64,000 nt of DNA from IMG/VR virus record IMGVR_UViG_3300040815_002027; one strand, given 5' to 3'. A program made the position numbers and the translations under genes. Shown here piece after piece: positions 18,903 to 42,391 of this stretch. Each line of letters starts with the position of its first letter. Within the stretch, counting starts at the first letter, position 1. The notes under the pieces were generated by a model. It did not search any database, had not been told where the DNA came from, and saw only the letters and a program-made list of their open reading frames with translations. The stretch is from a virus.

Positions 18903-18946
18903 ATAGTTTATATTTGTAAAAGTTTTAATCATTAAAAATAATTATT

Positions 18947-19504
18947 ATGTCACAAATTGGATTTGGATCTAACAACGGAGTTGGGAGAAAATTAATTACA
19001 TTGAACATTAAAGACTTGCCCCCTCTTTTTGAACTAAAGGAGAAGGTGGACGATTCCTGGCAAACTACGGATAAGACTAACGAGATCGCTGGTTATTTGC
19101 AAAACGTACAAGTTTTAACCAAAACTAGTGATAAGTATGGAGATAAAAAGCAGGTAGTTTTAGATATGGATTTAGGAGATTTTCTTGCACGAGTTAGAGT
19201 TAACTTAAACTCTGTAGGTAAAGAGATTCTTAACAGAATGTCAAATTCTGATGACCTAAAAGGTTCTGTTTTAAAGATGAGAGTTTATGTTGATAAGAAG
19301 AACTATCCTAGTATTGTATGTTATAAGGATGATGAGATTATGCAATGGGGACTTACTACTGATCAAGTTAAATTAAATTTTGCACAAGAAGGTTTTTGGG
19401 TTTCTTTATATGAAACTAAAATTAGACCTCAATTTGATTCTACGGTAGTAACTGAAGAAGCTACTAGTGATTTAGATGACTTTATGAAAAATGTTAAACT
19501 GTGA
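18947..19504 (+). CDS. Hypothetical, possibly ssDNA-binding protein
   Basis: Beta-rich body and acidic DLDDF tail; weak. Confidence 0.35.
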   Translation: MSQIGFGSNNGVGRKLITLNIKDLPPLFELKEKVDDSWQTTDKTNEIAGYLQNVQVLTKTSDKYGDKKQVVLDMDLGDFLARVRVNLNSVGKEILNRMSNSDDLKGSVLKMRVYVDKKNYPSIVCYKDDEIMQWGLTTDQVKLNFAQEGFWVSLYETKIRPQFDSTVVTEEATSDLDDFMKNVKL

Positions 19505-20000
19505 CAATAGGCAAAGCTTTTGAATCTCAAATTAAGAATAATTTGCCAGCAACAGAGCAAGGTATTAGGGTTTTAATTAACCCTATATACCACTCTGGTA
19601 GAAAGATAAATGCTGGCGATATTGCTTTATGGGCTAAATTAAGAGAAGAAGATGGCTCTACGACTATAGTACTTATACATCCAGATGATATAAAGATGTA
19701 CTCTTTAGATAGAAAAGTTAAAAAAGTAGATCCAGACCTTCCTTGCATTGTTCTGAAAAATAAAAAATAAGTTATGTTATATTCAATATACGCAAGTCTT
19801 TGCGGTAAAGTGTATCTAGAGGAGTATACGGACCACGTTAAAGCGTACTCCAGATACTCGCAGTTATCTTATAAATTAGAAAAACTATCAAAAAATAAGT
19901 TAGAGATTAGTGATCTCTCTCACGAACTTTCTGAGAATTTAGACAAGCACTGTACGTCTTCTTTAGGTTTTGTTCACTGTGAGAAATTTGAGGGAGATTT

Positions 20001-20723: not shown

Positions 20724-22010
20724 ATGAACTACTATAAGATAAAAAGAAAACAAGTAAAGCGTGATGCTGAAGAATCTTATTACTACGGCACTTCTATAGT
20801 ATATAGGATGTATCCTAATAAGAAGCAGGAGGAGTGGTTAACTGAGATAGGCAACAAATGTCGGGGAGCTTATAACAAACTGGTAGAAGAGTTCTGCCAA
20901 AATCCAGATAAACCCAGGAACTTACCTGGAACTTCTTTAAAGGAGATTAATAGGCTTAGACATTATTTAAAAGAGTTTGACTGGTTAGATGATGTTCCTT
21001 CTATATTTTTGTATAATGTTTGTAATAATTTTATTAAAGGAGTTGATAACTTTTATACTCAAATTAAAAAGAATAAAAAGATATTAGAGAAAGATCCTTA
21101 TGCTACAGTTAGAAAAACAAGTCCCCCTAAAAAGAAAAAGTCTTATAGAGACCTGCATTTTGGGTCTAATAACTCAACTATAGAAAGAAGCACTGCTATT
21201 GACTATGACAACAATAGATATTATTGTTTTACGAAAACATTAAAAAGATTAGGTATTAGTGATTCTTTTAAGATAAAATGTCACAAGAAGTTTTATAATA
21301 GCAAAATAAAAAGAGTTTCTTTTATGAGGGACAGTTCTATGTGTTGGTATGTGTCTTTTGGTTTGGAGCTTCCGCAAATAGATAGGTATGATAAAATTTA
21401 TGTACCTAAAGATAATAGTTTAGGTATAGACTTGGGTGTAAAAACCGCAGCTACTACTTCTGATGGGGTAAAATTTCACCCTCCAGTAGAGCAGATAAAA
21501 AAGTTGGAGAAGAAGATAGATGTTTTAAATAAAGTTATTAGCAGGAAACAAAGATTAGATAAAAAGAATTACTGGAAGAGTAATAACTATAGTAGGGTGT
21601 TGGAGAAGAAGTACAGAATACAGAAAAAGATAAATAACATAAGAGCTAATTATAACGAGTATGTATCTCATGTTCTTACCAAAGGAGAGTATAATAAGAT
21701 TCAGATGGAAGATCTTAAGTTAAATTTTATGGTAGAAAAAAGGAAGAAGAAGTTTGGTATGAGTAGATCGGCAACTCGTTTAGGTTTGGGAAGTTTAACT
21801 AATAAGATAAAATCTAAATCTCAGGTAAGAGGTATAGAGTTTAATAAAATAAATCCTGCAAACACAACTAAGTATTGTAGTAATTGTGGACATATAGAGA
21901 ACAGTTTAACTCTTAATACAAGAGAGTGGACGTGTCCTAGATGTGGTGTTGACCACGATAGAGATATAAATGCTGCAAAAAATATTCAAAAAAGTTTGGA
22001 TATTAGATAA
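20724..22010 (+). CDS. tnpB: CRISPR-associated TnpB/Cas12f-like RNA-guided nuclease (428 aa)
   Basis: YRMYPNKKQ N-terminus; RuvC-I GIDLG, RuvC-II MEDL, Zn finger CSNCG/CPRCG, RuvC-III DRDINAAKNI; adjacent array. Confidence 0.92.
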   Translation: MNYYKIKRKQVKRDAEESYYYGTSIVYRMYPNKKQEEWLTEIGNKCRGAYNKLVEEFCQNPDKPRNLPGTSLKEINRLRHYLKEFDWLDDVPSIFLYNVCNNFIKGVDNFYTQIKKNKKILEKDPYATVRKTSPPKKKKSYRDLHFGSNNSTIERSTAIDYDNNRYYCFTKTLKRLGISDSFKIKCHKKFYNSKIKRVSFMRDSSMCWYVSFGLELPQIDRYDKIYVPKDNSLGIDLGVKTAATTSDGVKFHPPVEQIKKLEKKIDVLNKVISRKQRLDKKNYWKSNNYSRVLEKKYRIQKKINNIRANYNEYVSHVLTKGEYNKIQMEDLKLNFMVEKRKKKFGMSRSATRLGLGSLTNKIKSKSQVRGIEFNKINPANTTKYCSNCGHIENSLTLNTREWTCPRCGVDHDRDINAAKNIQKSLDIR

Positions 22011-22026
22011 AAGGTTTGTAGATTTA
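21995..22026 (+). promoter_or_regulatory. Bacteroidota-type promoter for the tracrRNA/array
   Basis: TTTG (21995) - 20 nt - TAGATTTA (22019), one mismatch to TAnnTTTG. Confidence 0.5.
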
Positions 22027-22029
22027 CGA

Positions 22030-22245
22030 TCTAAGTAAGTTCATTGAAATAATCGCCCGTGTGTAGCGGGTTTAAAGGCTTGCAGATATAGCGTCAACCC
22101 CTTCTTTGCTACGCAAGTGGTAAAGTCGCTCAAAATCTTTCTTTAAAATGAAAGCGAGAGGCCGAGAGGACGCTAGGCGGCTAATGTCGAAAGACATAAC
22201 GTGTGAGAACACACGAAATATCTTTTAAATTGTAGCCTTTGTATA
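22030..22245 (+). ncRNA. omegaRNA-derived tracrRNA-like scaffold with 3' anti-repeat
   Basis: Stems CCCG/CGGG (22056-70), TAGCGTC/GACGCTA (22089-95/22169-75), ATGTC-GAAA-GACAT (22184-97), CGTGTG/CACACG (22200-15); 22216-35 is 17/20 identical to the repeat reverse complement. Confidence 0.75.
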
Positions 22246-22250
22246 GTTAG

Positions 22251-22921
22251 GGTGTATACCACCACAATTTGAAAGGTGTTTACAACTAATGTTAGACAAA
22301 AAAATAAGTATAGCTTGGTATATAGCACCACAGTTTGAAAGGTATTTACAACGGAAACTTAGGTTACCTACTATCTGCTGAAGGTGTATACCACCACAGT
22401 TTGAAAGGTATTTACAACGAAAACTTAGGTTACCTACTATCTGCTGAAGGTGTATACCACCACATTTTGAAAGGTATTTACAACCAAATGAAGAACGATG
22501 CACAATAAGATGTAGGTGTATAGCACCACAATTTGAAAGGTGTTTACAACAGATCTAAAAGAAGAAGCAGAAAAACTTTCAGTGTATACCACCACAATTT
22601 GAAAGGTATTTACAACTAGTACCTATAGTATCAAAGTTAAATCAGAGGTGTATACCACCACAGTTTGAAAGGTATTTACAACTTATGTTATGAAGGTAGT
22701 ACTCCTTATATTGGTGTATACCACCACAATTTGAAAGGTATTTACAAACGGTGTCTCTTTAGCATCATAATTTTAAAACTGTTTACAACATAGCGACATC
22801 AATGTCGTTACCATAGATGGCTGTATACCACCACAATTTTAAAACTGTTTACAACATAGCGACATCAATGTCGTTACCATAGATGGCTGTATACCACCAC
22901 AATTTTAAAACTGTTTACAAC
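22251..22921 (+). CRISPR. CRISPR array: 11 repeats of 36 bp (consensus GGTGTATACCACCACAATTTGAAAGGTATTTACAAC), nine 30-bp spacers
   Basis: Repeats start at 22251, 22317, 22383, 22449, 22515, 22581, 22647, 22713, 22754 (degenerate), 22820, 22886; 66-bp period except a 5-bp gap at 22749-53. Confidence 0.96.
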
Positions 22922-22938
22922 ATTAAAAAATCAAAGTT

Positions 22939-24872: not shown

Positions 24873-25490
24873 ATGAATACAGTAGAGTTGATTGGGTATT
24901 ATGGTAGTGATTTAACCCACGCACAAAGTGCCTGGACCAGTACAAGTAGAGATTTGAGTGATGAGAAGTTATCGAGAGTTCCTGCCCTTCTTAAAATGTT
25001 GGCAGAAAATGGACATCATACTCCGTTTGAAAAAAGTACACTACACTTTTTAGTTACTGTCGACCAGGCATCTCATATCCATTTATTAAAACATCGTATA
25101 GGTGTGAGCATCAATGGGGAGAGTGCAAGGTATAAAGAACTTAAAGAAGATAAAACATATATACCTCAAGACTTTCCAAAAGAATGGCAAGGTAAGTTAG
25201 AGGTGTTTTCTCAAGCATCAAACAACTTATACCATAAGTGCCTGGAAGAACTTACGCCAATACTTGGTAGGAAAAGAGCAAAGGAATCAGCAAGATTTTT
25301 TAAGACATTTAATAGTCAGATTACTATGGATGTTTCTTTTAATTGGAGAAGTTTTTACCACTTCTTATCTTTAAGAAATAAACCTGATGCTCAAAAAGAA
25401 ATACAAGAGATTGCACAGCAGATGTTAGATTTGGTTCTTGATATAGAAGGCAATCCATTTAAAAATACGATTATAGCTTTTGGGTTATAA
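24873..25490 (+). CDS. thyX: Flavin-dependent thymidylate synthase
   Basis: GHHTPFE; KHR..SINGESARY variant of RHRx7SxR; NWRS..FL.LR...AQKEI. Confidence 0.9.
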   Translation: MNTVELIGYYGSDLTHAQSAWTSTSRDLSDEKLSRVPALLKMLAENGHHTPFEKSTLHFLVTVDQASHIHLLKHRIGVSINGESARYKELKEDKTYIPQDFPKEWQGKLEVFSQASNNLYHKCLEELTPILGRKRAKESARFFKTFNSQITMDVSFNWRSFYHFLSLRNKPDAQKEIQEIAQQMLDLVLDIEGNPFKNTIIAFGL

Positions 25491-25544
25491 CCCTAAACTT
25501 ATACTTAGACTTAAAAGTTTTTAGGGGTATAACCATAAAAATAC

Positions 25545-25671
25545 AACAAGGAGGTGAGTACGCTTTAGTTGAGAGGTAGAGTGGATTAATTGCCGAAAAA
25601 GGGTTTGTAGTAGGTAGACGTTCCTCATTGCACTCAACAAGAAACCCTGAAACACCCAAAGCCTCCTTGTT
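25545..25671. ncRNA. Candidate structured RNA, possibly pseudoknotted
   Basis: 10-bp closing stem AACAAGGAGG/CCTCCTTGTT; crossing pairs GTTGAG/CTCAAC and AGGGTTT/AAACCCT. Confidence 0.4.
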
Positions 25672-25705
25672 TTTTGTTTACTATATTTATATATAAAGTA
25701 AAGAT

Positions 25706-26248
25706 ATGAAAGATTCGAGAAAGCTTTTAGCAACCATTGCAAAGGGATATTTGAGTGAAGAATTAAATCATAATATAGATGGGATAATAGCATATCATAG
25801 AAGCCCCAAAAAATTTTATGATTTTAAATTGTCAAATGTTAGTTCTGACAGTAATAGACAGAGATATGGGTGGGGGTTATATTTTTCAAACAGTATTCCA
25901 AATACGCAATATGGTGATTATTTATATCAAGTAAGTCTTTTTAAAAATAAGAAACAGTATGTTTTAATTGATTTAAAACAACCAGTTGAAGGACTTATAG
26001 TTAATAGGATTGTAGAAGCACTTAATCATTATAACAAAAAATCTGATGAAGTTGTTGAGTTTGCTTATAATGGATTTTTGTTTTATAAAACGTTATCAAG
26101 AATTTTAGGTGGTGATAAAAACGCATCTTTGTTTTTATCTAAAAATGGTATAGATGGGTTACTAAATAAAATAACTAAAAATTGGCACGATTATATATTA
26201 TTCAATGACGATAATATAATAATTGATGAGATTAAATATGACCCATAA
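25706..26248 (+). CDS. ADP-ribosyltransferase-like (PolyVal-type) domain with MKDSRK leader
   Basis: AYHRSP..F, YGWGLYFS, GIDG. Confidence 0.55.
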   Translation: MKDSRKLLATIAKGYLSEELNHNIDGIIAYHRSPKKFYDFKLSNVSSDSNRQRYGWGLYFSNSIPNTQYGDYLYQVSLFKNKKQYVLIDLKQPVEGLIVNRIVEALNHYNKKSDEVVEFAYNGFLFYKTLSRILGGDKNASLFLSKNGIDGLLNKITKNWHDYILFNDDNIIIDEIKYDP

Positions 26249-26376
26249 AAATAAAACAAAAAGAATGTTACGATGAAAATTAATACGAAGATGAAACGTA
26301 GCATTGCATATAACTGTTTGTTAATCCAATATGCTTCTGGCTATGTTTTGCAACTATTTATTAATAAAGTAAAGGT

Positions 26377-26871
26377 ATGAAAGATTCGAGAAAGCTTTTA
26401 GTAACCATTGCAAGAGGGTATTTAAATGAAAATATTGAAGATTATTCAAAATGGAAACGTAAAAATGTAACTTTGCGTGGAATGAAAGAATTAGGTAAAG
26501 CAAATGAAGTATATGGTTCTTTTGGAAAAGGATTATATACAGTACCTTTAAGTAATAAAGCAATGGCAAAACAATATGGTAAAATATATTTTGTTGTAAA
26601 TGGGATACCAAGAAAACCAAAAATTGTTGATTCATTAAATAATGCTGAATTGTTAAGACAAAAATTAATTAATGATTTTTGTAAAAAACATAACGAAGAT
26701 TATAGTCCTCGTTTTTTTGAATCAAATACAACTATGGAAGATGAAATGTTAAAGTTGGGTTATGATGGTCTTATAATAAAAGGTAGAGAGATGGTTAACT
26801 ACACCCCAAAGGATATTAAATATTTTAAAAATGAAAATGATTTACAACGTTACTATGAAGCACTTTCATAG
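26377..26871 (+). CDS. ART-like domain with MKDSRK leader
   Basis: LRG, FGKGLYT, GYDGLII..EMV. Confidence 0.5.
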   Translation: MKDSRKLLVTIARGYLNENIEDYSKWKRKNVTLRGMKELGKANEVYGSFGKGLYTVPLSNKAMAKQYGKIYFVVNGIPRKPKIVDSLNNAELLRQKLINDFCKKHNEDYSPRFFESNTTMEDEMLKLGYDGLIIKGREMVNYTPKDIKYFKNENDLQRYYEALS

Positions 26872-26949
26872 TATTGGTGCTAAATTATTACTTAACCCAA
26901 TCTCTAAAAGCATCTATTTCGATGCCTTTAAAAATTAAATAAAAAAGTT

Positions 26950-27537
26950 ATGAAAATAGTAGAAAACACAGTTACAGCCATTATGGTTATTTTTGTTTTG
27001 GTATTTCTTTATTTCTTTATGTCTGCCCAAAAAAGTGTGGGAGAAGAACCTAAAACAGAACAAGTCTCTCACGATGTCATTCTAAATTCTGTGCGAGAAG
27101 TAATCTCCCTAACAGTAATAGAAGCAAACTTTACAGAGATATATACTAAAGAAGACTATTGGAAGTTAGATCTATCTCCTTTCAGAAAGAAGATGGTAGT
27201 TAAAGTAAAAGCTAATGTAGGTATAGGGTATGATCTAAATGAGTTATATATAGATGTAGATAGAGAATCTAAAACTATATTAGTATTAAGAATGCCTTCT
27301 CCCAAACTTTTGTATATAGATGATACATTGGAGTATTTTGATATATCTGAAGGATATTTTAATTGGTTTGACCCAGGAGATTACACAGAGATAGACAGAG
27401 AGACAAGAGATAAGATAGAGTCTATGGTAACTAATAGTAGTCTTTTTACTGATGCAGACATAAAATTATTTGAAAATTTAAAAATAATTCGTAACTTAGC
27501 ATCCGAGATGGGATGGACAGTAGTTATAAAGGATTGA
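26950..27537 (+). CDS. DUF4230 family membrane-anchored protein
   Basis: N-terminal TM; KVKANVGIGYDL; MPSPKLL. Confidence 0.75.
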   Translation: MKIVENTVTAIMVIFVLVFLYFFMSAQKSVGEEPKTEQVSHDVILNSVREVISLTVIEANFTEIYTKEDYWKLDLSPFRKKMVVKVKANVGIGYDLNELYIDVDRESKTILVLRMPSPKLLYIDDTLEYFDISEGYFNWFDPGDYTEIDRETRDKIESMVTNSSLFTDADIKLFENLKIIRNLASEMGWTVVIKD

Positions 27538-27567
27538 TACTCTCGTTTATATTTATAGTAAAAGCTA

Positions 27568-28062
27568 ATGAAACTTACAAAACTTTTAGAGACAGTTAGG
27601 GAAGATTTCGTAAATGAAGATATTAACCGTGATAAGTCAAGGAAAGTGTTGTTTGTTGATGGACACGGGAAACAAATTGTTTACGATGATGGTGCTTTTA
27701 GGATTGCTGTTGATGATAAAGATGATGCACTATATGTAACTTTATGGCATAAAGAAGATGTGAAAGGTAAAGAGTATTGGGTTAAACGTGGGTACATAGA
27801 TGCTTGGAAGAGTAAAATGAACTTTAAAGATAGAAGTGGTACTTATTTATCTATTCGTTCAATAGAAATTGAGAATAAATATAGAAATAAGGGGTACGGC
27901 ACAAAGTTATACAAAGCTCTATTTGATTTTTCAGCAAATGATGTTAAAGGTGTTTATTCTTACTTACCAAATAGGGTTAATAAAAAACAAGTGCCTAAAA
28001 TATATAATAAATTAGGTGCTATTACTGATGGTGATTACCAATTTATTGAGTTTAGTAATTAG
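27568..28062 (+). CDS. GNAT acetyltransferase with MKLTKLLE leader
   Basis: IENKYRNKGYGTKLY acetyl-CoA motif A. Confidence 0.75.
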   Translation: MKLTKLLETVREDFVNEDINRDKSRKVLFVDGHGKQIVYDDGAFRIAVDDKDDALYVTLWHKEDVKGKEYWVKRGYIDAWKSKMNFKDRSGTYLSIRSIEIENKYRNKGYGTKLYKALFDFSANDVKGVYSYLPNRVNKKQVPKIYNKLGAITDGDYQFIEFSN

Positions 28063-28110
28063 TGATAAAACAAAAGTATTTAAAATATTAATTAATTAAA
28101 AGTTACAAAA

Positions 28111-31100
28111 ATGAATTACAAAGGTTTTGATGTACAGATTGAGATTAAGCAGTACAAAAATGGGGGAGATGCTATCTATCTAATAGATAAGCAGGACCAT
28201 TCACCAGTAGCAGTAGCAACAAGTTGGATTGAAGGTTTAGAACCTGATGAGTTAGCCATTAAAGATTATAGTGAGAATGAAGGTATATATAGATGGTTAG
28301 TAGACAATAATATTGTTACTCCATCCGTTAGAATGCTTTATGGATTTCCTATTTGTAAATTAGTTAACAATTAAATAAAAAAAGTTATGGAAAAGCAAAT
28401 TAAAAACTTAATCGAATTAGCAGAGCAGTATTACCAATATGCCATAGAAGAAGATTTCCCAAGTGGACACACCTGGTTACAGACAGACTATGGGGAGGTT
28501 GGGGTATACTTATCCACTTACAGTAGAAGAGATTACTCAGTGAAATTCGATGGCGAAGTGGAGGTTGCAGGATATGCAAATAGAATAGCAATGGGATTTA
28601 CTGCCACTTCAGAAACTTTAGAGAAATTATATAATAACTTTTCAAAATATCTTAAAACTGAAAAAGATAAGATTCAAGAACAAGTAGCAGTCCAAAGAGC
28701 TGAGAAGATAAAAAATTTGGAAGAAGAACTATCAAGATTAAAAAACTTATGAATAGGTTCACTTTCTTAAAAGTCTATAACTCTCCATTTAAGCCATTCC
28801 TACCTAAGTTATATATAGGTAGGATGACTATTGGAGTACCTTACTTTTATTCTCGTAAAAAAGTAGGGTTTGACCTTGTAGGCTTAGGTTATAAGACAAA
28901 GTGGTCAGATACTGACTATAGGTTCGAGTATAATCCTATATGGTCATTTACATTTTATAAGTGGCAGATTGCTTTAATCTTTGCACCTATTGAATGTAAC
29001 TATTATTGGCAGGCTTGGTTGTACTACTTTTACAATACTAAAGGTACGAAGGAAGAAAGGATAAGAGAATGTAAGAAGGAGTATCCACTTAAAATTACAG
29101 TAAGTGGTGTAAAGGATGGGAGGAGGTATGAGTATAGTTACGATGCGTATGATAAAGTTTTAAAATCGTAAAAATTATGGAAAACGAAGAAGTAAAAAAC
29201 AACGAAAAATATTCAATACCAATCTATGAGAATGGTGTGAAAACTGAATGGACTATTGATGGTGTAATAGGTGATGAAAAATATTTTGAGTTGTTGAAAT
29301 ATGGAAATGGTAAAGATTTACCTGATATGGTTAATGTTGGCGTAAAGAAATAATTTTTATATTTTATAACTTTTTGTTAATTCAAGTTTTTAAACATAAA
29401 ATTATGGAAAGAAATATAAGCGAAACACCCGAAAAATGGGTAATATTAAAACTACCAAATAATTACTATAAAGTTTTTGGAACTTGGGCTGGTGGTTATT
29501 TATATGGTGACAGATATAGATTAAATTCTGGAATTAGTAAAGTAGAACAAGACGAAAACTTTTATTATTTTATTGGATTTAGTGGAAGTTGCTATAAGTG
29601 TCACAAAAAAGGATATGGAACAGCGACATCTTACGGGTTAGGTGTTTTAAATAAAATAATAGAACAAGGAAACGGACAGATTGAGTTAATGGAAGATGCT
29701 GACGATTGGATAAATGTGGTATAACTATTTATTAATTAAAGTTTTAAACCTATCGAAATCGATGCCTTTAATAAATTACTAACAATTAAATTTTTAAAAT
29801 TATGAAAATGTATTATTACAATCCAAACAATTATAGTGCTGAATTTTTCGTTATGGCTGAAAACAAAACAAAAGCACATGAATACTTATTAAAACATTTA
29901 GAAAATAAGATTGTATCTGAAAGTTGCTATGCTGAGATGTATCAAGAAGATTTAGAAATATGGAAAAAAGTAAATCCCTTGGATATTAAAACATTTCCAG
30001 GTAAATATACTTTGGATGAACATGAAATTGGTTCAGTTATCGAATCTGAAATTGCTTAGTGGTTGCACTTTCGTAGCATTGTGTATAACTATTTGTTAAT
30101 CCAAGGTTTTAAACCCATCGAAATTAAGGGGTTTGTAAATTAAAAACAGATAAAATGGAATTAAAAAGAGTTATTGAAACATTAGAAAAACATCAAGAGT
30201 GGAGGCGTGACCAAAACGTACCACCAAAAGTAGAAATGCAAAGCCCTATTGAAATAGGAGCAGCTATTGATTATGCAATAAGCGAGTTAAAAAAATTGCG
30301 TTTATCTGATGTTGTAAAATCGTTGCCTAAAGACACAGACGGATGCAATATAAACAGTGTTAGCAACTATTTTCACTGCCAAAGAGAAGAAGAGATGGAA
30401 AGTAAATGTCAAACACAATGTGAACACTGTAAAGAATATTACAAACCATTAGAGCAATAATATTACTGCCAACGTTTTGGCTATGTGCCGTATGACGATA
30501 GGAATATGGACATATAGCCGTTGTTGTGCATAGTAGCGGATTAATTAACTAAAGTTTGAATAAATGAAATTACAATTCTTAACAATCGAAATTGATGGAA
30601 AATGCTTTGACTTACCAAAGGATATGCAGATTCCGCAGAAAGGTAGCACTGTATTTATTGAGGGTAAAACAGGGATAGTTGAAAACATTCACTACCATAT
30701 AGTAGACGGAAAAGTACACATGATAAGCATTTTTGCTACGAAAGGGTAGCTATTATGCACAACTATTTGTTAATCCAAGTTATTAAGATAAAAAACAATA
30801 AAAGATGAAAAAGTACAGAATTACAATTAGAACCAGTTTTGGGTCATTTGAGATTGATGACATTGAAGCACAAGATGAGGATGAGGCATTTGATAAGGCT
30901 TGTGAAGAGGCTAAAAAAGAAATTGATTGTGCAAAACTGGATGAAGTTTATGAGTACGATTCTTAATGGTGCATAACGGTACAGTATAACAGTAGTGCGG
31001 ATAATTAAAAACAATAATATGGATAAGTACACGAAAAAAGCGGTGTTTAGTTACTTAAAGAAGTATGACCACATAGCAAACGAAGAGGACTTTATAGAAG

Positions 31101-32625
31101 TTACTGAATGGAAAAACGGTGAAGGATTTGATGTAGAGATAGTTGGAAAATTAAGTACAAGGTTTCAATTAACTTGGGGTGAATACACCGCTTTGAAGAA
31201 GTTGGTTAAAAAACTTGATGGTTAGCATTACTGTTATACATTGTTGTAGTGTCGTTTTAATGCACTACAACGGCTACAGGTATGGCAATGTAATTTTACG
31301 GATTTGAAACACGGAAATTAATTATGGACAAGATAGATAGATTAAAGCAATTACTTCTGACACACAGAACAGAAGATATAAGCAAATTAACATTTGAAGA
31401 AAGGATTGATTTTGACGATGCGTTTGCACAAGAGATAGTAAAATTATTTGCTATACCTGATGTTATAGAGCCGAAGGGAAAGTTAAAATGCGAATGTAAA
31501 GATGAGTGGATGGAAGATGTTATTTATGTTCAGTGTAGTAAGTGTGGTGAAAAGTACTAACGCATTTTAATTCTCTATAACTATTTGTTAATCCAAGTTA
31601 TAAAAATAAGGAACATTGGCAAATAAAAATAAAGACCTTAAATTAGTAAAAGTTGGTACTGTTCGAAAACATATGGATGCGCATTTTAGAGATGAAATCA
31701 GCTACTCTGAAGCAGTTAATAGAATAAATAAAGAAGCAAATAAAAATATGAGAAATATGAAAGCAAAATTAACATTTATACTGCCAGAAGATAGGTACGA
31801 ATATGACATGGCAGTCAATGGAAGCAATTGGCATCACGTTGCTTGGGAGATGTACCAATACTTGAGAGGCAAAACTAAATATGCACCAGATGATGCTCAT
31901 GAGGAGTACACTCAAGCAATGTCTGATTGTAAGGATAAGTTGTTTGAAATTATGCGAGAAAACGGAGTAGATTTTGACTTATGAGAAAATCAAAGTTTGA
32001 CATATCATCACAAAAACCTTTGAGTTTTAGAATCAAAGAGTTTTTTAGAAGCCTACTTTTTTGGAAAGGTAGACAGAAAGGTGTGATTCATACCCGTAAT
32101 ATTATATTGGATGATTTCCGATATAAGGATGATTTCCGATACATCTTTTTTCCAAAAGATTTTGCTGAGAAATATGGATATTTGGGTACTTCTGTTTGGA
32201 ATGAGGATAGTGTTTATTTCAAAGCACTTTATCCACTTGTTCTTGCATTAGATTATGAAGCAAAACCAAAATGGTGTCCAAGATGGTTTCTTCGTTTTCT
32301 TGATGTATTTGGTTCTGATAGGTCAGTCGTTAGAGTTAGGAATTTGAGATTGCACAATTTACAAACAAAACTAACCAAAGGAATTGCATTTGTAGATTGG
32401 AAAACAAAATGGAGTGATTACGATTTAAGAATCAGTATCCATGCACCTTCTCACTTACAAGATTTGGCTTCAGCCATTGAAGAAAAGTTTTATTCTAAAG
32501 GTAGACAGAAAGAGTTAGTAAAACAAATCAAACAGTTAGACCCAAATGCCTCTATAATATGGGGGAGTATAAAACGGTTAGAAGAACAATTAGAGAAGTT
32601 AGAAAATAAGGTTGTAGACTTATAA
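28111..32625 (+). CDS. Run of about 14 small hypothetical genes, many in cassette-like units (includes 29177-29353 and 30805-30966, absent from ORF track)
   Basis: Same-strand short ORFs, several ending at AAC-type boundary sites. Confidence 0.6.
30464..30530. repeat. attC-like hairpin
   Basis: TGCCAAC-GTTTT-GGCTATGTGCCGTAT..ATATGGCATATAGCC-GTT-GTTGTGC. Confidence 0.6.
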
Positions 32626-32661
32626 TACCTATAAATAAGGTTGTAGACTTATAATACCTAT
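32604..32661 (+). repeat. Perfect 29-bp tandem duplication
   Basis: AAATAAGGTTGTAGACTTATAATACCTAT x2 across the stop of 31981..32625. Confidence 0.9.
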
Positions 32662-32714
32662 AATTGTGAATAACTACGATAAGTTTATTGTATATTTATA
32701 TATAAACAGAATTA

Positions 32715-33419
32715 ATGAAAGACTTAAGAAAATTCTTATCTACAACTGCGAAACAGTATTTGAATGAACAAGCATCATTAGAAAATGTGAAACTAAATGA
32801 TAATTTTTGGGAATGGTTTGGTAATAGTAAAGTTGTTGATAAAGATGGGAATCCAATGATTTGTTATCATGGAACACCAAAAGGTGGTTTTACTGAATTT
32901 AAACCAAAAACTGGTTATAAAGGTAAATCAAAACAACAAGTTGATTTAGGTTCGCATTTTTCAATTGATAAAGAATATGCTTCAGGATATGCTGGTGATA
33001 AAAAAACATCAAAAGTTTATGAATCATTTTTGAGAATAGAAAATCCGTTATATACTAATCAAATGTTTTATAGAGAGGATAATGAAAAATTATTTCTCAA
33101 TTATTTGAATTTTATAACCAAAACATTCAAATTAAAATTAGGTGGTGATTACTACTATAACAAAAATGGAGATAAGCAAAATGAACCACAAAATATTATG
33201 CTCAATAGTTTTTTGATTGATAAAATACCATCAAATAAACTTTATAATAGTTTAATAGAATTTGGTTTTGATGGTGTTTTTCACGAACCATATAATAGGG
33301 AGGGGTTGAGTCATTTTAAAAAACATCCATTGGCATACATAATTATAGAACCGAACCAAGTTAAATCAATTGATAATGATGGTAGTTGGGATGTAAATGA
33401 TAATAATATTTATTCTTAA
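32715..33419 (+). CDS. ART-PolyVal-like protein with MKDLRKF..YLNE leader
   Basis: FWEWFGNSKVVDKDGNPMICYHGT; GFDGV; EPNQVKSIDNDGSWD. Confidence 0.7.
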   Translation: MKDLRKFLSTTAKQYLNEQASLENVKLNDNFWEWFGNSKVVDKDGNPMICYHGTPKGGFTEFKPKTGYKGKSKQQVDLGSHFSIDKEYASGYAGDKKTSKVYESFLRIENPLYTNQMFYREDNEKLFLNYLNFITKTFKLKLGGDYYYNKNGDKQNEPQNIMLNSFLIDKIPSNKLYNSLIEFGFDGVFHEPYNREGLSHFKKHPLAYIIIEPNQVKSIDNDGSWDVNDNNIYS

Positions 33420-33550
33420 TTTTGTGTGGTGGAGAAAAAGTAAAACAAAAAGATTATAATCACGAAACTTAATACGAAGCACAAACGTAGCATTGCATAT
33501 AACTAATCGCTATCCGCATATTTATGGTGGATATACAACAAAAACAAATT

Positions 33551-34294
33551 ATGAAAACAGTTATATTAGGAGACATCCACGGAACAAATTATTGGCAAAC
33601 TATAATAAACTTCGAGAAACCTGATAGAGTTGTGTTCGTAGGAGATTATTTTGATTCTTTTGATATTCCTTACGATAAGCAGATAGATAACTTCCTGGAC
33701 CTCATAGAGTACAAGGAAAAAAGTGGGGGAGAAGTCATACTACTAATAGGTAACCACGACTATCATTATCTACCCTATATAAACGACACATATACATCAG
33801 GCTATCAATCTAAATATGCTCATTTAATAAAACAAGTAGTAGAAACTAACTTACACCATCTACAGATAGCCTATCAGTTTGATGACTTTCTAATAACACA
33901 TGCAGGAGTAAGTGAAGAGTTTATGGATAATAACTTTGATAAGTGGTCTGAGGAAACTATAGTAGAACATCTTAATGATTTATTTAAATATAAACCTAAT
34001 AAGTTTTTATTTAATGGTCTTGACCCTTATGGAGACGATACTTACCAGTCTCCTATATGGATAAGACCTAAAAGTCTTATGAGAGCAAACAAGACATCAG
34101 AACTAAAGAGAAGGTATGTTCAAGTAGTAGGGCATACTCAAGTAAAGGAAATTGATACGAAGGGAGGTGCTACGGGAGGAAGGTATTATTTTATCGACTG
34201 CTTATCTACGAGTGGGCAGTATATGATCGTAGATGAAGATTCGTTTATTAATTTTAAAAGTTATAGAGATTATGATAAAGAAGATACTGAGTAA
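33551..34294 (+). CDS. Metallophosphoesterase (paralog of 20001..20717)
   Basis: GDIHG, GDYFD, GNHD, THAG, GHT; shared KG.AT.GR.YF.D. Confidence 0.9.
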   Translation: MKTVILGDIHGTNYWQTIINFEKPDRVVFVGDYFDSFDIPYDKQIDNFLDLIEYKEKSGGEVILLIGNHDYHYLPYINDTYTSGYQSKYAHLIKQVVETNLHHLQIAYQFDDFLITHAGVSEEFMDNNFDKWSEETIVEHLNDLFKYKPNKFLFNGLDPYGDDTYQSPIWIRPKSLMRANKTSELKRRYVQVVGHTQVKEIDTKGGATGGRYYFIDCLSTSGQYMIVDEDSFINFKSYRDYDKEDTE

Positions 34295-35063
34295 AGTTTG
34301 GAATTCAAAAATAATTTGTATATTGTTGCACACCAGGATAAAGATAAAGGACTTTCCTTATGAGATAGATCCTGTAACACAACGGCCCTACGGTAGGTAT
34401 AAGTGTAAAATTTGCGGGAGAAGATACCTTGCCAATAATAGATTCGATTGGTATCAAATAGATATAAAGAAGAAACATAAATAAACTAATTATAGAATGA
34501 ACATAGGCGTACTAAAACATAACGAGACTGGATGGTACATCGAAACTCCAGATAGAGACTATAAACTACATCCTGAAGAAGAGAAGGTCTGTAACATGTA
34601 TGTAGACTATTCTATAGACTGGATAGGAAAAACTGTAGAGTTCCGTATAAAGAAAGATAAAAAAATATCCTATGCTATTACAGAAAAGTTTGTAAAATAG
34701 AAAATAAAGATTTATATTAGCGTTTATGAAACACATTAAGCAAGCGTTACGACTATTACTACTATGTTGGCTTATTGTATTTCTATTATTTATATTATTA
34801 ATTAACTTAAATTAAAAGGTTATGGCATTATTTTTTTTCGGTTTGGGAGCAGGAGTTTCTCTGTCGTTGGTTTTATCGTTTATTGGTATAAGGTCTTTAA
34901 TTTTATCTAAAAAGAACAGCTCTTCTATAGAGGTGTTAGAGAATGACATTAGTTACAAGCTATCTATGATGCAAAAGCAGATAGCCAGACTTAAGTAAGA
35001 TTTTATGTGGGGACAAACTGTCCCCATTTGTTTTGAACTTTAATTTTAATAAAATAATTAACT

Positions 35064-35552: not shown

Positions 35553-37212
35553 TACTCATGCTTTTTTTATACGTGGGAGGCTAGTCCTCCTACTTTTTAA
35601 ATTTAAATTATGATTAATACGTTACAATACTATTCTGAAAAATCTAAGTTTTTAGTATTCAAATACCATAGAGTAATTTTTGATGATCTACTTTTTAAAG
35701 GCTGGTCTGCGCATAATAATTATAGAGAGGTTTTATCTTTATACATCTATCTTATGAATGTTTACTTTAGAGTCCCTTTAAACTTATTAGCATCTACTCT
35801 TCCGATTGAGGAGTGTAGGTGTAAACTATATCTGGATAGTATTAAGATTTCATATATAACTAAAATATCTGAAAAATTAGACAATTATTCTGAACAGTAT
35901 GATATAACTTTAGCTAAGTTGTTTAAGTAGCCCAAACAAACTCTTCGCATCTTAGTTTGTTTTTAAATGTTTTTTTGTGAAAGGGTGAGGTAAAGTTCTC
36001 ACCCTATTTAGAATCCAAAAAAGTTGCCGAGAAGCCCTAATGAAAAATATACATACACTACAACTACATAATAAACTAATAATAGATAATAACACTTCAG
36101 TACTAAAAGTACCCAATGGACTAATATATACTATAAAGACAATAGAAACTATAACTAATACTAAAGATAATTCTAAATACACTATAACAAATACTAATAT
36201 AGTGTATGTACCTTATACTAATAACACTGATACTATAACAAATAAGGATACAGATAATAAACCTAACCCAGATATAGATCTACCAGATAGTCAATACACT
36301 ATAATATAACTTTATTATGTTTATCAAACTAAAATGATTGTTAAATTAAATACATACACTATAACTAATAGGTTATTTTATAGTATATATACACTATAAT
36401 ATATAACTACAAAGTATACGTTAGTCTTTCGTTTTTACAGGCTTCTCACTTAGGTGGGAGGCCTTTTTATTTATAACCCTAAAGGGTGGAGGTGGGAAGG
36501 ATTACAAAACGCATTCTAAAGGTTTACAAAATGTTTATCAAACTGGGGTGTCAAATTGGGGAGGTAGGTGCATATTTGCCCTGTCTTTTTCTCGACCCTC
36601 CATTTTTTTCCTACCAAATTTTATTTGGCCTGGGCTGGCCATCCTTCCTGGTTGATCTTCACCTGCCTGGTGGGTGGAGGACCTGGTCTGGTAGGAAATG
36701 CTTATAAGGGTCTACCTCATATCTATTTGTTTTGCGTGTTTGGTCAACCAGGGTCTGGTTGGAATAACTTATTTTTGAAAAAAGTTGGGAAAATATTTGG
36801 AGATGTGGGTGAGGTTATATTATCTTTGTGGAACTTTAAGCAAGGGGGGAGTCCTTCCTCCCGTTTCCATGTTTTAAGTTTTAGTTGATTAATGATTTTG
36901 GGGCCTCCTCTTTAACTAGGGGAGGCTTTCTTTTTATAACTCCAGAAGCTTATAAGGATGTTTCTGTATACTGGATTGTTTGCGTGTTTGACCAACCAGG
37001 CCTGGCAGGCTGGTAAGTTTGGTGTGAAGTTAGTAGGCGGCTTGGATCCTTAAGTTCAGTATAAAGTTAAACTACCTATTATATAAGGTGTAGTATACTA
37101 TATACACTATATACTATAAAGTTATTTTTTTTTAAAAAAGTTGCAGCGAGGTATTGTGTAATTAAAAACTTACTTATATATTTGCGACATCGTTAATCAC
37201 TAAAATAGAAAT

Positions 37213-40200
37213 ATGATGAAAAAGATCAGGGTAACAAATGAAGAACTATTCTACGGTAAGAATGTAGAAGTATTTACTGAGAACTTAAATGTAGGTACTA
37301 TTAGAGGTAGGTTTATTGGTACTGGACATTTACGCATTGTATGGGATGGGGACTCTATGGTAAGTTCTGGTGAGTTTGGGAGGGATGATTTTGAGGAGGA
37401 CTTTGGGTTTGTGTTTGAGGTGGAGAAAAATCCTAAAGAGGAGCAGTACTTTATACTGAGGGATATCCAGAGGTCTGGGTATAATGTAGTAACGTGTGGA
37501 GATTGTGGCACGGTTAATCTTGTTAGGTTTTCTGATGGAGACTTTTACAAGTGCCATAAATGTGGGTTTGATGATGACAGTAGTTCTTTTCCAGATTTAT
37601 TTTATTAATTAATTTAAAACTTAAATATTATGACAAAGACAAAGATGTGTTCATTGGTAAAGTTAAACAACCTTATCTACAACTTTACCAAAGTTATTCC
37701 TTCCCTAAAGGAGCAGTACCTTCACTTTCATTATGATATATCTACGGATACAATATCTCTATTAGAGATTAATGGTGGAAAGCCTATGGAGGGAGATGAT
37801 ATGTCTATAAGGTTTTCTGAGGAGGGTGATTTGTATGAGATTACTGTAACTGGGGATAAGTCCTTTTGTAATACGGTAGGTGATGTATTAAATCATATAG
37901 AGAATTGGTTTGCATAATAACTTGTTTTATATCTGGAATTGGTGATGAACCTCTCCCCAACTTTTGGTGGAGGGGTTTTTTTATGCTTATAAGGATCTAC
38001 CTTATATCTATTTGTTTTGCGTGTTTGCCCAACCAGGGAAGGTCTGGCCTGGTTAGTTTACTTTGAAGTTATTATAGAGCTGGTTAGTTTACTATAAACT
38101 TATTATATGTAGATCTACTTTAAAGTTATTTTTTTTGAAAAAAGTTGGGGTGAGGTATTGCGTAATTAAAAACTTACCTATATATTTGCAACATCATTAA
38201 TCATTAAAACAAAAAATTATGAAAGCTTTTGTAGTATTAATCCTAGTTGAAGGTTCATTAGTAGAGCCAAGAAAGACTTGTGAATTCCTTGAAGGAACTA
38301 AATTTGATATCGGAGGTTCAGTTCAAGCCACATCTACTGACGTATTGAACAAGGTTCTGTTTGAATTAGGTCTAAATGATTCTGATGGCATAGGAGTGCT
38401 TTCAATTTCAGACTTTATGGACAGGTTTAATGACCAAGAATTAAACCCAGATGACTACTTTATGTCTTATGTGTATGCTTAGTATTGTGTAATTAAAAAC
38501 TTTCCCCTATATTTGCAATCATTAATTAACTTTAAACTAAACAATATGGAAAACTTACAAATGATAAATATGTTAGACTTTCTGTTTGATATGTTAGAGC
38601 ATTACCCAGACTTCCCAAATTATTCAGAAGCAAAACAGTTATCTGTTCTTACAAAGCATATAAACTATCAAGATGGTCATACTAAATTAAATTTACAGTA
38701 TGATTATATAGGAGAAGCATCAGATGATTACTATAAAGTTATATTTGATATGAGTGATTTTGGTGAGGTATTTAAGTATGCAGATGAAGAGGTTTTATCT
38801 GAAATAAAAAGTAGTGAAGAGTTTAAGAGTAATAATAAGTATTTTATGTTTAATGGTAAAGGTATAGTATCTAATGATGATATTACTGTGTTAGGTTTTG
38901 ACTCTAAAAAGATTGCACAGTACATATTAGAAGAGTATCATAATTTTATATGTTAGCATAGTTTCGGATAGTATGTTTGAGCCTCTCCGCCAGATTTTGG
39001 TTGGAGGGGTTTTTTTATGCTTATAAGGATCTACCTTATACCTATCTGTTTTGCGTGTTTGCCCAACAGAGCTGGCTGATCTGTAAGTTTACTTTGAAGT
39101 TATTATATGTACTGGGTAGTTTACTGTAAACTTATTATATATAGGTTTAATAAAAAGTTATTTTTTTTTCAAAAAAGTTTGCGGAGAAGAAATAAAAAAC
39201 TATATTTGCAGAACATTAATCATTAAAACATAACAAACATGAACAATTACGATTTCTTTTTATTCACAAAACTAGTGGATGTAAGATTCCCCAACAATAA
39301 GGATTCTTACGATGAGTTGTACGATACCTTATCTATGGCTTATAACTCTTTTCTATCAAGTAAGTATAACGACTTTGATAAAGGAGTTTATGAGTGTATA
39401 GAAGAATACTTGGAAGATGAGGACTTACCATTCAGACAATGTACAAAGACTGGTAGTTACATTGTAGAGGGGTATATGGTCAATCACAATTTAATGTCGT
39501 ACGGAGATATCGAATACTATGCTTCAGAAGAAGATTTAGTAGAAAGATTGAAGGAAACTTATCCTGAAATTTCAGATAAGGAAGAACTACTGGCTACTGC
39601 CTATGAAGATGAGTATTACTGTTGGACACAATTTAATAATTAACTTTAAACTAAAACTATTATGGAAGATTTCAAATTAATCAATGTACTGGAACTGGCT
39701 TCTGAACTAGCAGATATGAAAGTTAGAGAAATTATGGTAAACTTTTCAGATATTTACATTGAAGATAGTGATGGAAGTACAAGGTATACTGAAGAGGCTC
39801 AAGACCTATTTAACGAGTGGTACGATTCCTACACTGAACTAATACAATCTATTTAACTTTAAACTAAAACTATTATGGACAAATTACTTAAATCTGAAAT
39901 TGACAAAGCAAAAAAACTTTTAAAAGACAATGGCTACCAAACGTATAACTTGTGGCACATTGACGATGTATTGGATGAAGAAGGGCTTTTAGAGGATGGC
40001 GATAAGATGGAGATACTGGAAGAAGCACTCACAAATGAATGGGTTATAGAACAAATTTTTTTTATTATAAACGACATTAGAGATAGGTATATTGAAGAAG
40101 TTAAAAACAAAAAAGCATGAGAAGGAAGTATTTAAATAGAGTAACAGAAAGTGATTTTATAAACTGGTACTTTAGCGATTCAGAAGACTTGACCGAATTT

Positions 40201-40368
40201 GCAAAAGGTATTATTGATGAACTGGCAGAGACTGGTAAATGTAACTTGACTGTAAAGAAAGTATTTGATAACTGTGGGTATATACCCTCACACATTTGCG
40301 AGTCTAAACTGGATGGGGAAGAATACCAACCGCACGAAGTTAGACTGGTAAAAGATATTTCTAATTAA
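37213..40368 (+). CDS. Small acidic early-type hypothetical genes (37213 with Zn ribbon, 37630, 38219, 38546, 39239, 39662, 39875, 40117)
   Basis: Each unit preceded by a TATATTTG promoter; CGDCG/CHKCG in 37213. Confidence 0.65.
39178..39208 (+). promoter_or_regulatory. Bacteroidota sigma-A promoter (near-identical copies at 40638, 41607, 42664, 43697)
   Basis: TTTG-N19-TATATTTG matches the -33/-7 consensus. Confidence 0.85.
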
Positions 40369-40702
40369 AAGTAAAAAAGTTAGGGGAGAGTGTATAATAA
40401 TTAAAAACTTTCCCCTATATTTGCAGAACATTAATTAACCATAAAAACTTAAAGTTATGAAAGTAGCAAGACCCAAGACAGAAAAATGGCATAATGACCA
40501 AGAAGGTGATTGCAGAAAACCTATTGATAGAGATGGAAGTAAAAAATCATATTATAAAAAAGGATGGTGGAAAAGATATGATAGAAAGAAGTTTTTCCGC
40601 AATATTAACAAGTGGTTTGGATAATTACCGCTAAAAGTTTGCGGAGAAGAAATAAAAAACTATATTTGCAGAACATTAATTAACAACTAAAAATTTAAAA
40701 CT

Positions 40703-41362
40703 ATGCCAAACTGGTGTTCAAATTACGTAACGATTTACGGAGAAGATTTCTCCAAAGTAAAAGATTTACTTTTAACTAAAACTGATGATGATGGTCTTTT
40801 CGAGCATACTGTAGGTATTGTAAAGGAAGGCTATTTAAGAGATGAAAAGTATAAAAATTTAGGAGAGGTTATGCTTGATAACAAATACTTTAACTGGTAC
40901 GACCACAACATAAACGAGTATGGTACAAAGTGGGATGTTAATGAGATTTCATTTGATGTTTTTGCCGACCCATCTGATGAGCATATTTCCTTTAGTTTTG
41001 AGTCCGCTTGGTCTCCTCCTTTAGAATGGGCAAGAAAACTGTCAGATAAGTTTAAAGTAATTGTGGTAATAGAGTATGCTGAAAATGGTTGTGATTTTGG
41101 AGGTAGGTCAATATTTGAGAATGGAGATGAAAAGGAATTTGCACAATACACATACCTTAACTGGATGTTAGTTGATGATACGAGTGGAACTAGGTTTATG
41201 GAGGAAATAGAGTACATAACATCTCATATGGACAAAGATGAGTTTGAAGAGTATAAGCAGGATATTATAGAGTCTGCTGAAGAACAGTTAGACTCTACTT
41301 TTGTAAAGACTGTTGTGGATGTATTTGATGAAATAGAAAAGAGTATGTTTGAAGAATCTTAA
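40703..41362 (+). CDS. DUF1281/YubB ferredoxin-like domain protein
   Basis: MPNWCSN; WYD..I..YGTKWD; FESAWSPP; Y.E.G.DF.G. Confidence 0.8.
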   Translation: MPNWCSNYVTIYGEDFSKVKDLLLTKTDDDGLFEHTVGIVKEGYLRDEKYKNLGEVMLDNKYFNWYDHNINEYGTKWDVNEISFDVFADPSDEHISFSFESAWSPPLEWARKLSDKFKVIVVIEYAENGCDFGGRSIFENGDEKEFAQYTYLNWMLVDDTSGTRFMEEIEYITSHMDKDEFEEYKQDIIESAEEQLDSTFVKTVVDVFDEIEKSMFEES

Positions 41363-41670
41363 TAGTAATAGGTTATGTTTTAGAGTGCCTCTCCCCCGCT
41401 TTTGGAGGAGGGGTTTTTTTGTGCTTATAAGGATGATCCGATATACCTACTAGTTTGCGTGTTGTGTGAACTGGTTGAACGTATTTGTAAGTTTATTTTA
41501 AAGTTATTGTACATACTATATGTTTACTTTTAAGTTATTATATGTATTATATGTTTACTGTAAAGTTATTCTGTTTACTTTTAATTTATTTTTTTTTGTA
41601 GAAAAGTTTGCGGAGAAGAAACAAAAAACTATATTTGCAGAACATTAATCAACATTAAAAACTTAAAGTT

Positions 41671-42391
41671 ATGGAAACTTACAAAAAGATTGGTAATTAC
41701 ACATTCAAGTTAACATCAAAATACAATATTGGTGATGAAATTTTTTATCAGAATATGAAATGGAGTTATAAAGATGAGAAAAATATCATTACAAAAGAAA
41801 AGGCAAAAATAGTTGATATGTATGATTATGGTAATAAAAATTGGGGAACACTAAATGTTAGAGTTATACCTGAAAGAAAAGAATTGTGGGATAAGGATGG
41901 TGGTAGGTGGATTAGTGAAAATGATATTATTTCAAAGGTGGGTGGGTAAAAATTATTGCACATAACTATTTGTTAACCCAAGTTTAAACTTAATACCAAT
42001 GAAACTAACATTCAGTATTTTAATTATCTTTATATCTTTAACTGTACATTCACAGTCCAGAAGATTCACTTTAGATAAAAGTAATTTAGCAACAGTACAA
42101 AGTAACAATATTAATCAACCAACAAAACAATCTACTATGAAGTTATTCATCGCAATCGAAGAAGGAAGGAACCTACGTTCCAGATTCATTACAAGCTTGG
42201 AAATTATTGCTAGAAATGAAATTGAAGCTAGAAAAATTATCAGAGAGTATAATCGTTATGTATTTGATAATAAGTTAAAAGTAAAAGAATTGAACAGACC
42301 TATCATTTGTGAAGTAACTATGACTGGTGCATTTGAACACCATAAGAACTCTACTAGAGGGTTTTATAACCCTACTACAGAAGTACAGTAA
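41671..42391 (+). CDS. Two hypothetical genes (41671..41949, 41999..42391)
   Basis: First ends at a cassette boundary site at 41963. Confidence 0.55.

Follow-up and report, generated by a model that had tools for sequence, protein, structure and literature searches.

Within a 64,000-nucleotide (nt) stretch of the IMG/VR virus record IMGVR_UViG_3300040815_002027 (the window), the island at 30460–31600 is probably a recombinase-less cluster of cassettes and folded sites belonging to an integron-like system of the Bacteroidota akin to rAID-1. It is read in this way because its grammar is common to arrays in Flavobacteriaceae chromosomes that are headed by a tyrosine recombinase. The record itself is an 85.5-kb fragment of a Bacteroidota phage (31% GC, 47% complete), given as one strand, with the window corresponding to its positions 3404–67403.

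The first-pass annotation of this DNA had described nested inverted repeats with AAC and GTT ends as integron-like gene cassettes, and each of the arm pairs that it listed is present where it had placed them (Table 1). Its attC-like hairpin (30464–30530) corresponds to an imperfect hairpin around 30461–30537. The arms that enclose the genes 30564–30749 (30523–37/30749–63) and 31019–31225 are each 15 nt long with 14 complementary positions, those at 31277–88/31448–59 are complementary at 11 of 12 nt, those at 31462–70/31573–81 measure 9 nt, and its empty unit is a hairpin with arms of 9 + 9 nt, the sole one of its type in the record. In RNA folds the 31277 helix comprises 12 + 10 bp with one bulge and G.T pairs, and the cassette that follows has an outer helix of 9 bp along with an inner one of 10 bp (31483–92/31561–70). 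The frame of gene 31324–31560 runs across this site–cassette junction, which encodes the linker P-D-V-I.

The flanks of the two upstream sites are alike in their order: AAC, G and TTTT precede the helix of site 30479–30519 and GTT follows it, while site 30984–31239 has AAC, GG and 4 nt on its 5' side and 3 nt and then GTT on its 3' side. The former shares spacers and helix type with the chromosomal sites described below, and scores under the threshold of our detector (9 bp, then a bulge). Upstream of it, the box at 30461–30473 has a decayed left partner, and its end resembles the right arms of loci L001, L154 and L201 and the boxes of a Formosa array. The cassette 30523–30763 is identical in the relative L001, and its end structure is that of two short chromosomal cassettes (L610, 11830 and 13083), including a G.T pair at position 11. 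Searches of Pfam and PHROGs with the island proteins gave no family.

The lone mismatch in each of the pairs 30523/30749, 30984/31225 and 31277/31448 is a G on the left opposite a T on the right, and the first mismatch of the stem 30479–89/30508–19 is of the same kind. As nearly every arm mismatch, in relatives as well, sets a G on the 5' side against a T on the 3' side, good folding is confined to the + strand, with 30460–31600 reaching -255.6 kcal/mol on the + strand versus -187.6 on the - strand. The same segment contains three GC-containing inverted repeats scoring at least 10, against a shuffle mean of 0.12 and with none of 200 shuffles reaching three, and two scoring at least 12 against 0.01 in shuffles; the control stretches 1–20000 and 47000–64000 are at chance level. 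The 9- and 12-nt arm pairs, each taken alone, are within chance, and the RNA fold places them in longer helices. On the + strand of the entire record a strict site detector finds just two sites, both in the island. The possibility that gene-flanking repeats are a genome-wide trait of this phage was rejected, as the observed pairs approximate permuted ones, barring those around genes 30564–30749 and 31019–31225.

The wider family was traced with the 29-nt hairpin pattern as a probe, leaving six variable stem positions per side free. Among 123 matches in IMG/VR, 98 have fully complementary stems and 22 pair at five of the six positions; a perfect 6-bp variable stem would arise by chance once in 4096, and at least 25 stem types occur among the viral hairpins. 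Bacterial genomes likewise gave 123 matches, of which 47, mostly in Bacteroidota, are perfect. In the Cellulophaga phage phi39:1, 17-bp arms with two G.T pairs bracket gp03 and are followed by two such hairpins, and phages of Polaribacter and Riemerella, as well as phage phi19:1, give weaker matches. In 84 of 131 contexts, viral and genomic, compared with 15 in the control, the 26 nt preceding the hairpin are complementary to a segment lying another 96–469 nt upstream; at a score of at least 14 the numbers are 46 and 0. The helices so formed hold 1269 Watson-Crick pairs, 116 pairs of G in the 5' arm with T in the 3' arm, 7 T.G and 11 others. Across 65 distinct helices nearly every position is occupied by several pair types with almost no non-pairs, i.e., the arms covary; the four near-constant pairs form a T-A, A-T step and an A-G.T-T step, with a second G.T pair 5 bp further out in half of them. 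Between the viral arms lies a gene, a domain, or a stretch of about 100 nt that has T-loop-like hairpins but lacks a reading frame, which bears out the earlier proposal that the loops of the sites carry genes just as the segments between them do. In 20 of 21 recurring cases a shared upstream unit is joined to different downstream sequence, and in 32 independent pairs the first difference falls 0–3 nt past the AAC.

A single hairpin match in the complete chromosome of Formosa sp. A9 connects this viral family to cellular arrays. The DNA adjoining it is a repeat of about 140 nt, present as dozens of clustered same-strand copies in 11 of the 11 Formosa genomes searched. In Formosa sp. A9 its grammar is that of the phage (AAC, GG, about 4 nt, helix, loop of 58–142 nt, return helix, 0–3 nt, GTT), the helices have the same consensus and the same G.T positions, and the intervening cassettes carry cassette-specific inverted end repeats of 9–14 nt. 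Within 32 kb there are 23 sites on one strand versus 2 on the other, and the pairs in a 19-site, 20-kb part of the array number 263 Watson-Crick, 40 G.T, 5 T.G and 1 other. Among the genes of the array are those for a type I restriction-modification system, a GNAT protein and CdiI_3 immunity; the CdiI_3 gene and an IS21 insertion lie beside the hairpin match. The Formosa sp. A9 array (L609/L610, at about 1.656–1.688 Mb) spans some 30 kb and is headed by a Xer/IntI-like recombinase; in draft genomes orthologous arrays often end contigs.

This association is general: arrays of 7–23 same-strand sites, each by a Xer/IntI-like tyrosine recombinase, occur in all 7 Flavobacteriaceae genomes put through the detector, so that the AAC-arm..arm'-GTT grammar, which the first-pass annotation had taken to be constant in the phage, also recurs beside a recombinase. 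In four Formosa genomes the enzyme, of 390 amino acids (aa), is encoded at one end of the repeat cluster. Its best families are XerA/integron integrase (215 bits) and the integron integrase family TIGR02249 (208.9 bits versus a cut-off of 265), both curated scores being just under the cut-off, and the solved structures that it resembles are XerA, a XerC-like protein and IntI4. Of 121 Flavobacteriaceae genomes sampled, 29 encode an orthologue, one each and with 41–54% identity. All six further genera that were looked at have 7–16 sites within 18 kb of the recombinase gene, every one on the strand opposite to it, with 901 Watson-Crick, 94 G.T, 13 T.G and 15 other pairs. The cassette genes of Formosa run in the same direction as the recombinase gene, and it is their antisense strand that folds.

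Viruses and a chromosome also have a unit in common. The Formosa array contains, in register, a unit of the phage type complete with its empty hairpin; the 68-aa gene of this unit shares 97% identity with one on the viral contig L447, and between the two units the outer arms and the hairpin stem differ yet stay complementary. A single-protein search of IMG/VR with the array recombinase gave no match, and a profile search of it returned only shorter Xer-like enzymes of at most 42% identity. Genuine sites lie within 2 kb of 3 of the 7 IMG/VR recombinases that come closest to the array enzyme (five at L635, and at L630 and L631) and of none of the 73 others, and these site-adjacent enzymes show the same family ranking as the array recombinase. 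The IntI-like recombinase suggested earlier as a search target was not found in the phage record or in four relatives; a Xer/IntI-like enzyme heads the Flavobacteriaceae arrays.

Comparison with closer relatives shows how such units vary among phages. A blastn search of GenBank phages with 8 kb of the window gave no match. The closest relative, the IMG/VR contig L001, is 98% identical over 30086–32604. Synteny with it ends precisely at 30086; at this point both carry the 19-nt motif, each with a different AAC-ending box fused to it. Within the shared block the divergence is mosaic and confined to one unit, with 11 differences inside 30828–30963 (in the 53-aa gene) and none in either 30425–30827 or 30964–32518. 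The 68-aa gene of the island has 136 homologues in IMG/VR and 136 in metagenomes. The arms accompany it in L201, L202, L281 and L283, and in L285–L287 both are altered in a compensating way; they are found only at the closest homologues, the more distant ones being without them. The hairpin next to these homologues has five different stems, all complementary, around an unchanged loop, and at the position homologous to 31277–31459 in L201 the arms again differ yet are complementary. Helices tile L201 (2966–4150) and L285 (6169–7100) end to end and alternate between one class that encloses a leader with a gene or N-terminal domain and another, GTT...AAC, around a Cys-rich C-terminal domain or a short loop, their junction being translated as a P-x-V-I linker. 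The helices at these loci contain 38 mismatches: 23 set a 5'-arm G against a 3'-arm T, 3 have the opposite orientation, and A.C does not occur. Within the 68-aa gene two distant 10-nt segments (31037–31046/31185–31194) are perfectly complementary, a feature kept in most of the close homologues examined (about 84–96% identical) and absent in L284 and L288.

In the architecture that emerges, one strand, the + strand here, can fold into two alternating kinds of helix. The first is the inner helix of a site, of 15–22 bp with the conserved A-G.T-T step, preceded by AAC, GG and 2–5 nt and followed by 0–3 nt and GTT; the second brings together the two ends of one cassette (GTT...AAC). On chromosomes the site loop consists of 58–185 nt of non-coding DNA with the genes residing in the cassettes, whereas in phages it usually holds a small gene, a domain or a small RNA-like sequence, and an empty 29-nt hairpin often stands in the cassette position. 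In the proposed mechanism, the G.T pairs would render one strand foldable and its complement not, and the folded strand would be recognised by a Xer/IntI-like tyrosine recombinase, coming from a host array or from some phages, that exchanges DNA at the AAC/GTT borders. Units could thereby move among phages and between phages and chromosomal arrays, and protein halves could be joined across the junction. The anatomy, the covariation, the strand asymmetry, the grammar common to the recombinase-headed arrays and the sharp AAC breakpoints are directly observed; from them we infer that the recombinase acts on the sites and that the phage copies are still active. Since the phage arms fall in the same folded-site family as those of the chromosomal arrays, an integron-like pool of exchangeable genes is probably common to phages and their hosts. 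A more far-reaching version, wherein Bacteroidota phages actively take part in cassette exchange with small genes, domains and small RNAs carried in the sites, a Xer/IntI-like recombinase of host or phage shuttles units between phage genomes and chromosomal defence and immunity arrays, and exchange at the junctions assembles new proteins from N- and C-terminal halves, is a tentative proposition that we consider less likely than not.

Several observations weigh against viewing the island as part of an integron-like system. In the phage record and four relatives, one of them a complete 166-kb genome, neither a tyrosine recombinase (PF00589) nor serine or Y1 recombinases or a reverse transcriptase were found; the earlier remark that no integrase is in the window agrees with this. 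Changes of content fall at AAC/GTT boundaries, as had been anticipated, in the 32 pairs and at the break at 30086, but two of the three gene-content differences from L001 (27540–28088 and 32605–33550) lie away from such boundaries. Breakpoints as sharp as these, where a shared 29-nt hairpin ends, would also result from plain homologous recombination, and the data contain neither an excision product nor a locus seen both empty and filled. The score of the array recombinase is under the integron-integrase cut-off and its gene, unlike intI, is co-directional with the cassettes. Loops of 100–470 nt are long for a folded DNA site. In phages the strand that can fold is sense to all cargo genes, and part of the cargo is small-RNA-like, which would fit a role in RNA as well. 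Lastly, the detector has a background of 44 matches in 974 kb of unrelated viral loci, some of them spurious, because of which its counts are judged mainly by strand asymmetry.

The chief rival is that the helices act in RNA, a long-range stem and the conserved hairpin bracketing each gene, domain or small RNA for processing, stability or translation control, much as stems flank ribosomal RNA, with shuffling resulting from selection for intact brackets and from homology of the conserved parts. It is retained as such because the foldable strand in phages is always sense, sense RNA folds best and some cargo looks like RNA, and we would give it a small but appreciable chance of being right. When the units are folded as sense RNA, 79 of 80 have the closing helix in their minimum-energy structure, compared with 70 for antisense RNA, 63 for sense DNA and 49 for antisense DNA; the 116 G.U against 7 U.G pairs with no A.C, the better-folding + strand, the cargo of about 100 nt with T-loop-like hairpins and no reading frame, and a phage with no detected recombinase point the same way. 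However, the chromosomal foldable strand lies opposite to the cassette genes in Formosa, and to the recombinase gene in all six further genera (where the strand of the recombinase rather than the orientation of the cassette genes was compared), due to which a family-wide RNA role would need antisense transcripts. The helices moreover cut reading frames at domain borders (31438–31470), which a processing stem would destroy; the phage has one island and a single canonical hairpin rather than a genome-wide expression signal; Rfam has no matching family, with nothing relevant in 25000–35000; and no RNase III was found in the five phage records.

Another account would have the flanks serve as portable homology patches of the PeSL type for general phage recombination, with no dedicated recombinase, folding irrelevant and the likeness to the arrays due to shared descent. 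This we hold to be improbable, even more so than a role in RNA. It draws on the breakpoints falling at the ends of shared sequence, on the Formosa and L447 units, whose cargo is 93–95% identical with differing outer arms as would fit crossovers in the conserved inner arm segments, on the 19-nt direct repeat of the phage at the synteny break, and on the documented shuffling of ORFans by PeSLs in T4-type phages (PMC2839356). Yet homology leaves unexplained the covariation in 65 helices, the polarity of the G.T pairs and the 25 complementary stem variants; the arms are inverted rather than direct; the units have no shared promoter, none having emerged as a consensus from the flanks of 143 hairpins and 79 leaders; and one recombinase family stands beside the arrays in all the detector-checked genomes as well as beside the repeat clusters of three more Formosa genomes. 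The initial reading of the island, as promoter/terminator cassettes of PeSL type acting in RNA, was demoted once the chromosomal arrays were found. As for the notion that the arms are inverted repeats arisen by chance, or ordinary terminators, in AT-rich DNA between genes, the short arm pairs are individually unexceptional and about 0.5 gene-flanking repeats of score 12 are expected genome-wide against two seen. Against this, the local excess surpasses all 200 shuffles, the arms covary in relatives, and the hairpins 30479–30519 and 31243–71 lead into GTT or GG with no T-run, in contrast to the canonical T-run terminators of the same phage at 35000–46000, so that the alternative under which the arms would be only terminators fails too. 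Comparative sequence data have already refuted this account, and its residual probability is negligible.

Returning to the integron-like reading, the likeness to integrons and to integrase-less attC clusters (CALINs) is considerable: imperfect palindromes with AAC and GTT cores separate the cassettes of an array, the boxes pair as an outer and an inner set, the spacer is asymmetric and unpaired, the loop varies, one strand folds well, the two ends of each cassette are complementary and, on chromosomes, a tyrosine recombinase of the Xer/IntI clade stands at the head (PMC9024848). The phage island is the analogue of a CALIN (IntegronFinder 2.0). The island, viral contigs and seven chromosomal arrays all have this attC architecture and a strong asymmetry between strands, and cassette boundaries at G|TT/AAC are seen in the 32 pairs and the 30086 break at a resolution of a few bases that is also compatible with homologous exchange. 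Nevertheless, the island is not a canonical integron. An integrase of the TIGR02249 kind, adjacent and divergent, is found neither in the phage nor in the chromosomal arrays, where the recombinase scores lower and points along the cassettes; by eye, only AAC/GTT and part of the purine/pyrimidine pattern of the consensus RYYYAAC/GTTRRRY fit; the strand bias comes from conserved G.T pairs rather than the extrahelical bases of integron attC sites; the paired boxes are longer (14–22 bp); and the variable loop of phage sites is occupied by genes, domains or RNA-like cargo, the cassette in some cases being no more than an 11-nt loop. Canonical integrons are, furthermore, nearly absent from Bacteroidota (PMC9024848).

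By analogy, the site family appears to resemble most the rAID-1 arrays of Bacteroidales, in which a XerD-like tyrosine recombinase is followed by co-directional short genes with conserved intergenic repeats that were called integron-like (Ross et al. 2019, 10.1101/471110; 10.1101/2025.05.03.651265). The Flavobacteriaceae arrays have the same layout of recombinase, co-directional genes and intergenic repeats, the likeness being one of described layout, and they too carry immunity-type cargo (the CdiI_3 gene in Formosa); the phage island, having no recombinase, does not have that layout. On the other hand, rAID-1 is described in Bacteroidales only, and the folded repeat architecture, the G.T polarity and a presence in phages are unmentioned in either source. 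The PeSLs of T4-type phages, i.e., direct repeats with a sigma-70 promoter and a terminator stem-loop (Arbiol et al. 2010, PMC2839356; PMC4122927), are alike in that they too border ORFans with conserved sequence, within the hyperplastic region of a large phage, and in that close relatives differ by insertion, deletion or replacement of cassettes. The flanks here differ from them in being inverted, covarying, strand-asymmetric, devoid of a shared promoter and common to recombinase-headed arrays; direct repeats with an early promoter and terminator are not what is seen, and the sole PeSL-like element is the 19-nt direct repeat of the phage. What sets the family apart from all of these is the G.T-based strand bias, the genes and domains in site loops, the near-empty cassettes and the phage setting; literature searches found no description of the loop motif or of integron-like arrays in Flavobacteria.

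To our knowledge, integrons, the classic gene-capture system, are not known as a feature of phages. If the integron-like reading is true, about a quarter of the sampled Flavobacteriaceae genomes would carry a parallel system with its own site design, and the same sites would be present on hundreds of environmental phage contigs and in cultured Cellulophaga phages, at least phi39:1. It would offer a concrete route for ORFans of phages and for anti-defence or immunity genes between viruses and hosts, and a natural case of domain-level shuffling at a recombination junction, with short structure-defined sites and a compact recombinase that make it directly testable. Should the sites act in RNA instead, they would still constitute a large, undescribed class of gene-bracketing structures.

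Table 1. Features of the island and its surroundings (positions in the window)
Feature	Position	Strand	Description
19-nt motif copies	26312, 29368, 29723, 30087, 30761, 31579, 41964	+	just past a stop codon, 37–68 nt ahead of the next start
Orphan right-arm-like box ending in AAC	30076..30089	+	fused to motif copy 30087; synteny breakpoint versus L001
Outer box ending in AAC	30461..30473	+	3' end of unit carrying the Cys-rich C-terminus of gene 30155–30460
Empty-loop site	30479..30519	+	inner helix 30479–89/30508–19, 18-nt loop
GTT...AAC-class cassette	30523..30763	+	arms around 61-aa gene 30564–30749
19-nt direct-repeat motif copy, promoter-like	30761..30779	+	fused directly to the cassette-end AAC
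53-aa gene	30805..30966	+	mosaic segment between 19-nt motif and second AAC-ending box 30968–77
Site with gene in loop	30984..31239	+	helix 30984–98/31225–39 around leader and 68-aa gene 31019–31225
Empty cassette	31243..31271	+	9-bp stem, GTT/AAC ends, constant 11-nt loop
Site with leader and N-terminal half of gene 31324–31560 in loop	31277..31459	+	helix 31277–99/31438–59
GTT...AAC-class cassette	31462..31581	+	Cys-rich C-terminal half and stop of gene 31324–31560
19-nt motif copy, again AAC-fused	31579..31597	+	island end

The 19-nt direct repeat, of which seven copies occur where 0.11 would be expected, all of them on the + strand, probably serves as a phage-specific promoter; its sequence departs from the TTTG/TAnnTTTG promoter consensus of Bacteroidota. 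Three of its copies abut an AAC-ending box within or at the edge of the island. The motif was dismissed as a widespread signal, as a scan of IMG/VR gave mostly chance single matches and real ones only in the close relatives L098, L114 and L154. A pairing between the hairpin loop and the leaders of the genes was likewise rejected because a complementary 8-mer occurs in just 1 of 79 leaders.

The non-coding cargo of about 100 nt, with one or two T-loop-like hairpins (GGTTCGAnTCC), is exemplified by L363 (about 3780–3945), L434, L593 (about 1930–2085) and L460. ARAGORN recognised no tRNA in the T-loop-bearing cargo and Rfam gave no match at six loci with RNA-like cargo; such cargo may be a new class of small RNAs carried as cassettes.

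Around the island, the difference from L001 at 27540–28088 is a 164-aa gene that L001 is missing, with neither AAC/GTT boxes nor the 19-nt motif at its junctions. A tandem duplication of about 28 nt (32606–32662) over the last codons of gene 31981–32625 adjoins a gene for a 234-aa ART-PolyVal ADP-ribosyltransferase (32715–33419) that is absent from L001. Further along, 36700–47000 contains repeated intergenic modules, each of which combines a host-type promoter (TTG ... TAnnTTTG) with a canonical terminator hairpin and its T-run, a pair of conserved boxes and units of about 35 nt arranged in tandem. Upstream, at 20724–22938, a 428-aa gene is followed by a CRISPR-like array with repeats of about 36 nt and spacers of about 30 nt, in which some spacers are duplicated, the last units are degenerate and the repeat ends appear to resemble the GTT...AAC ends of the hairpin.

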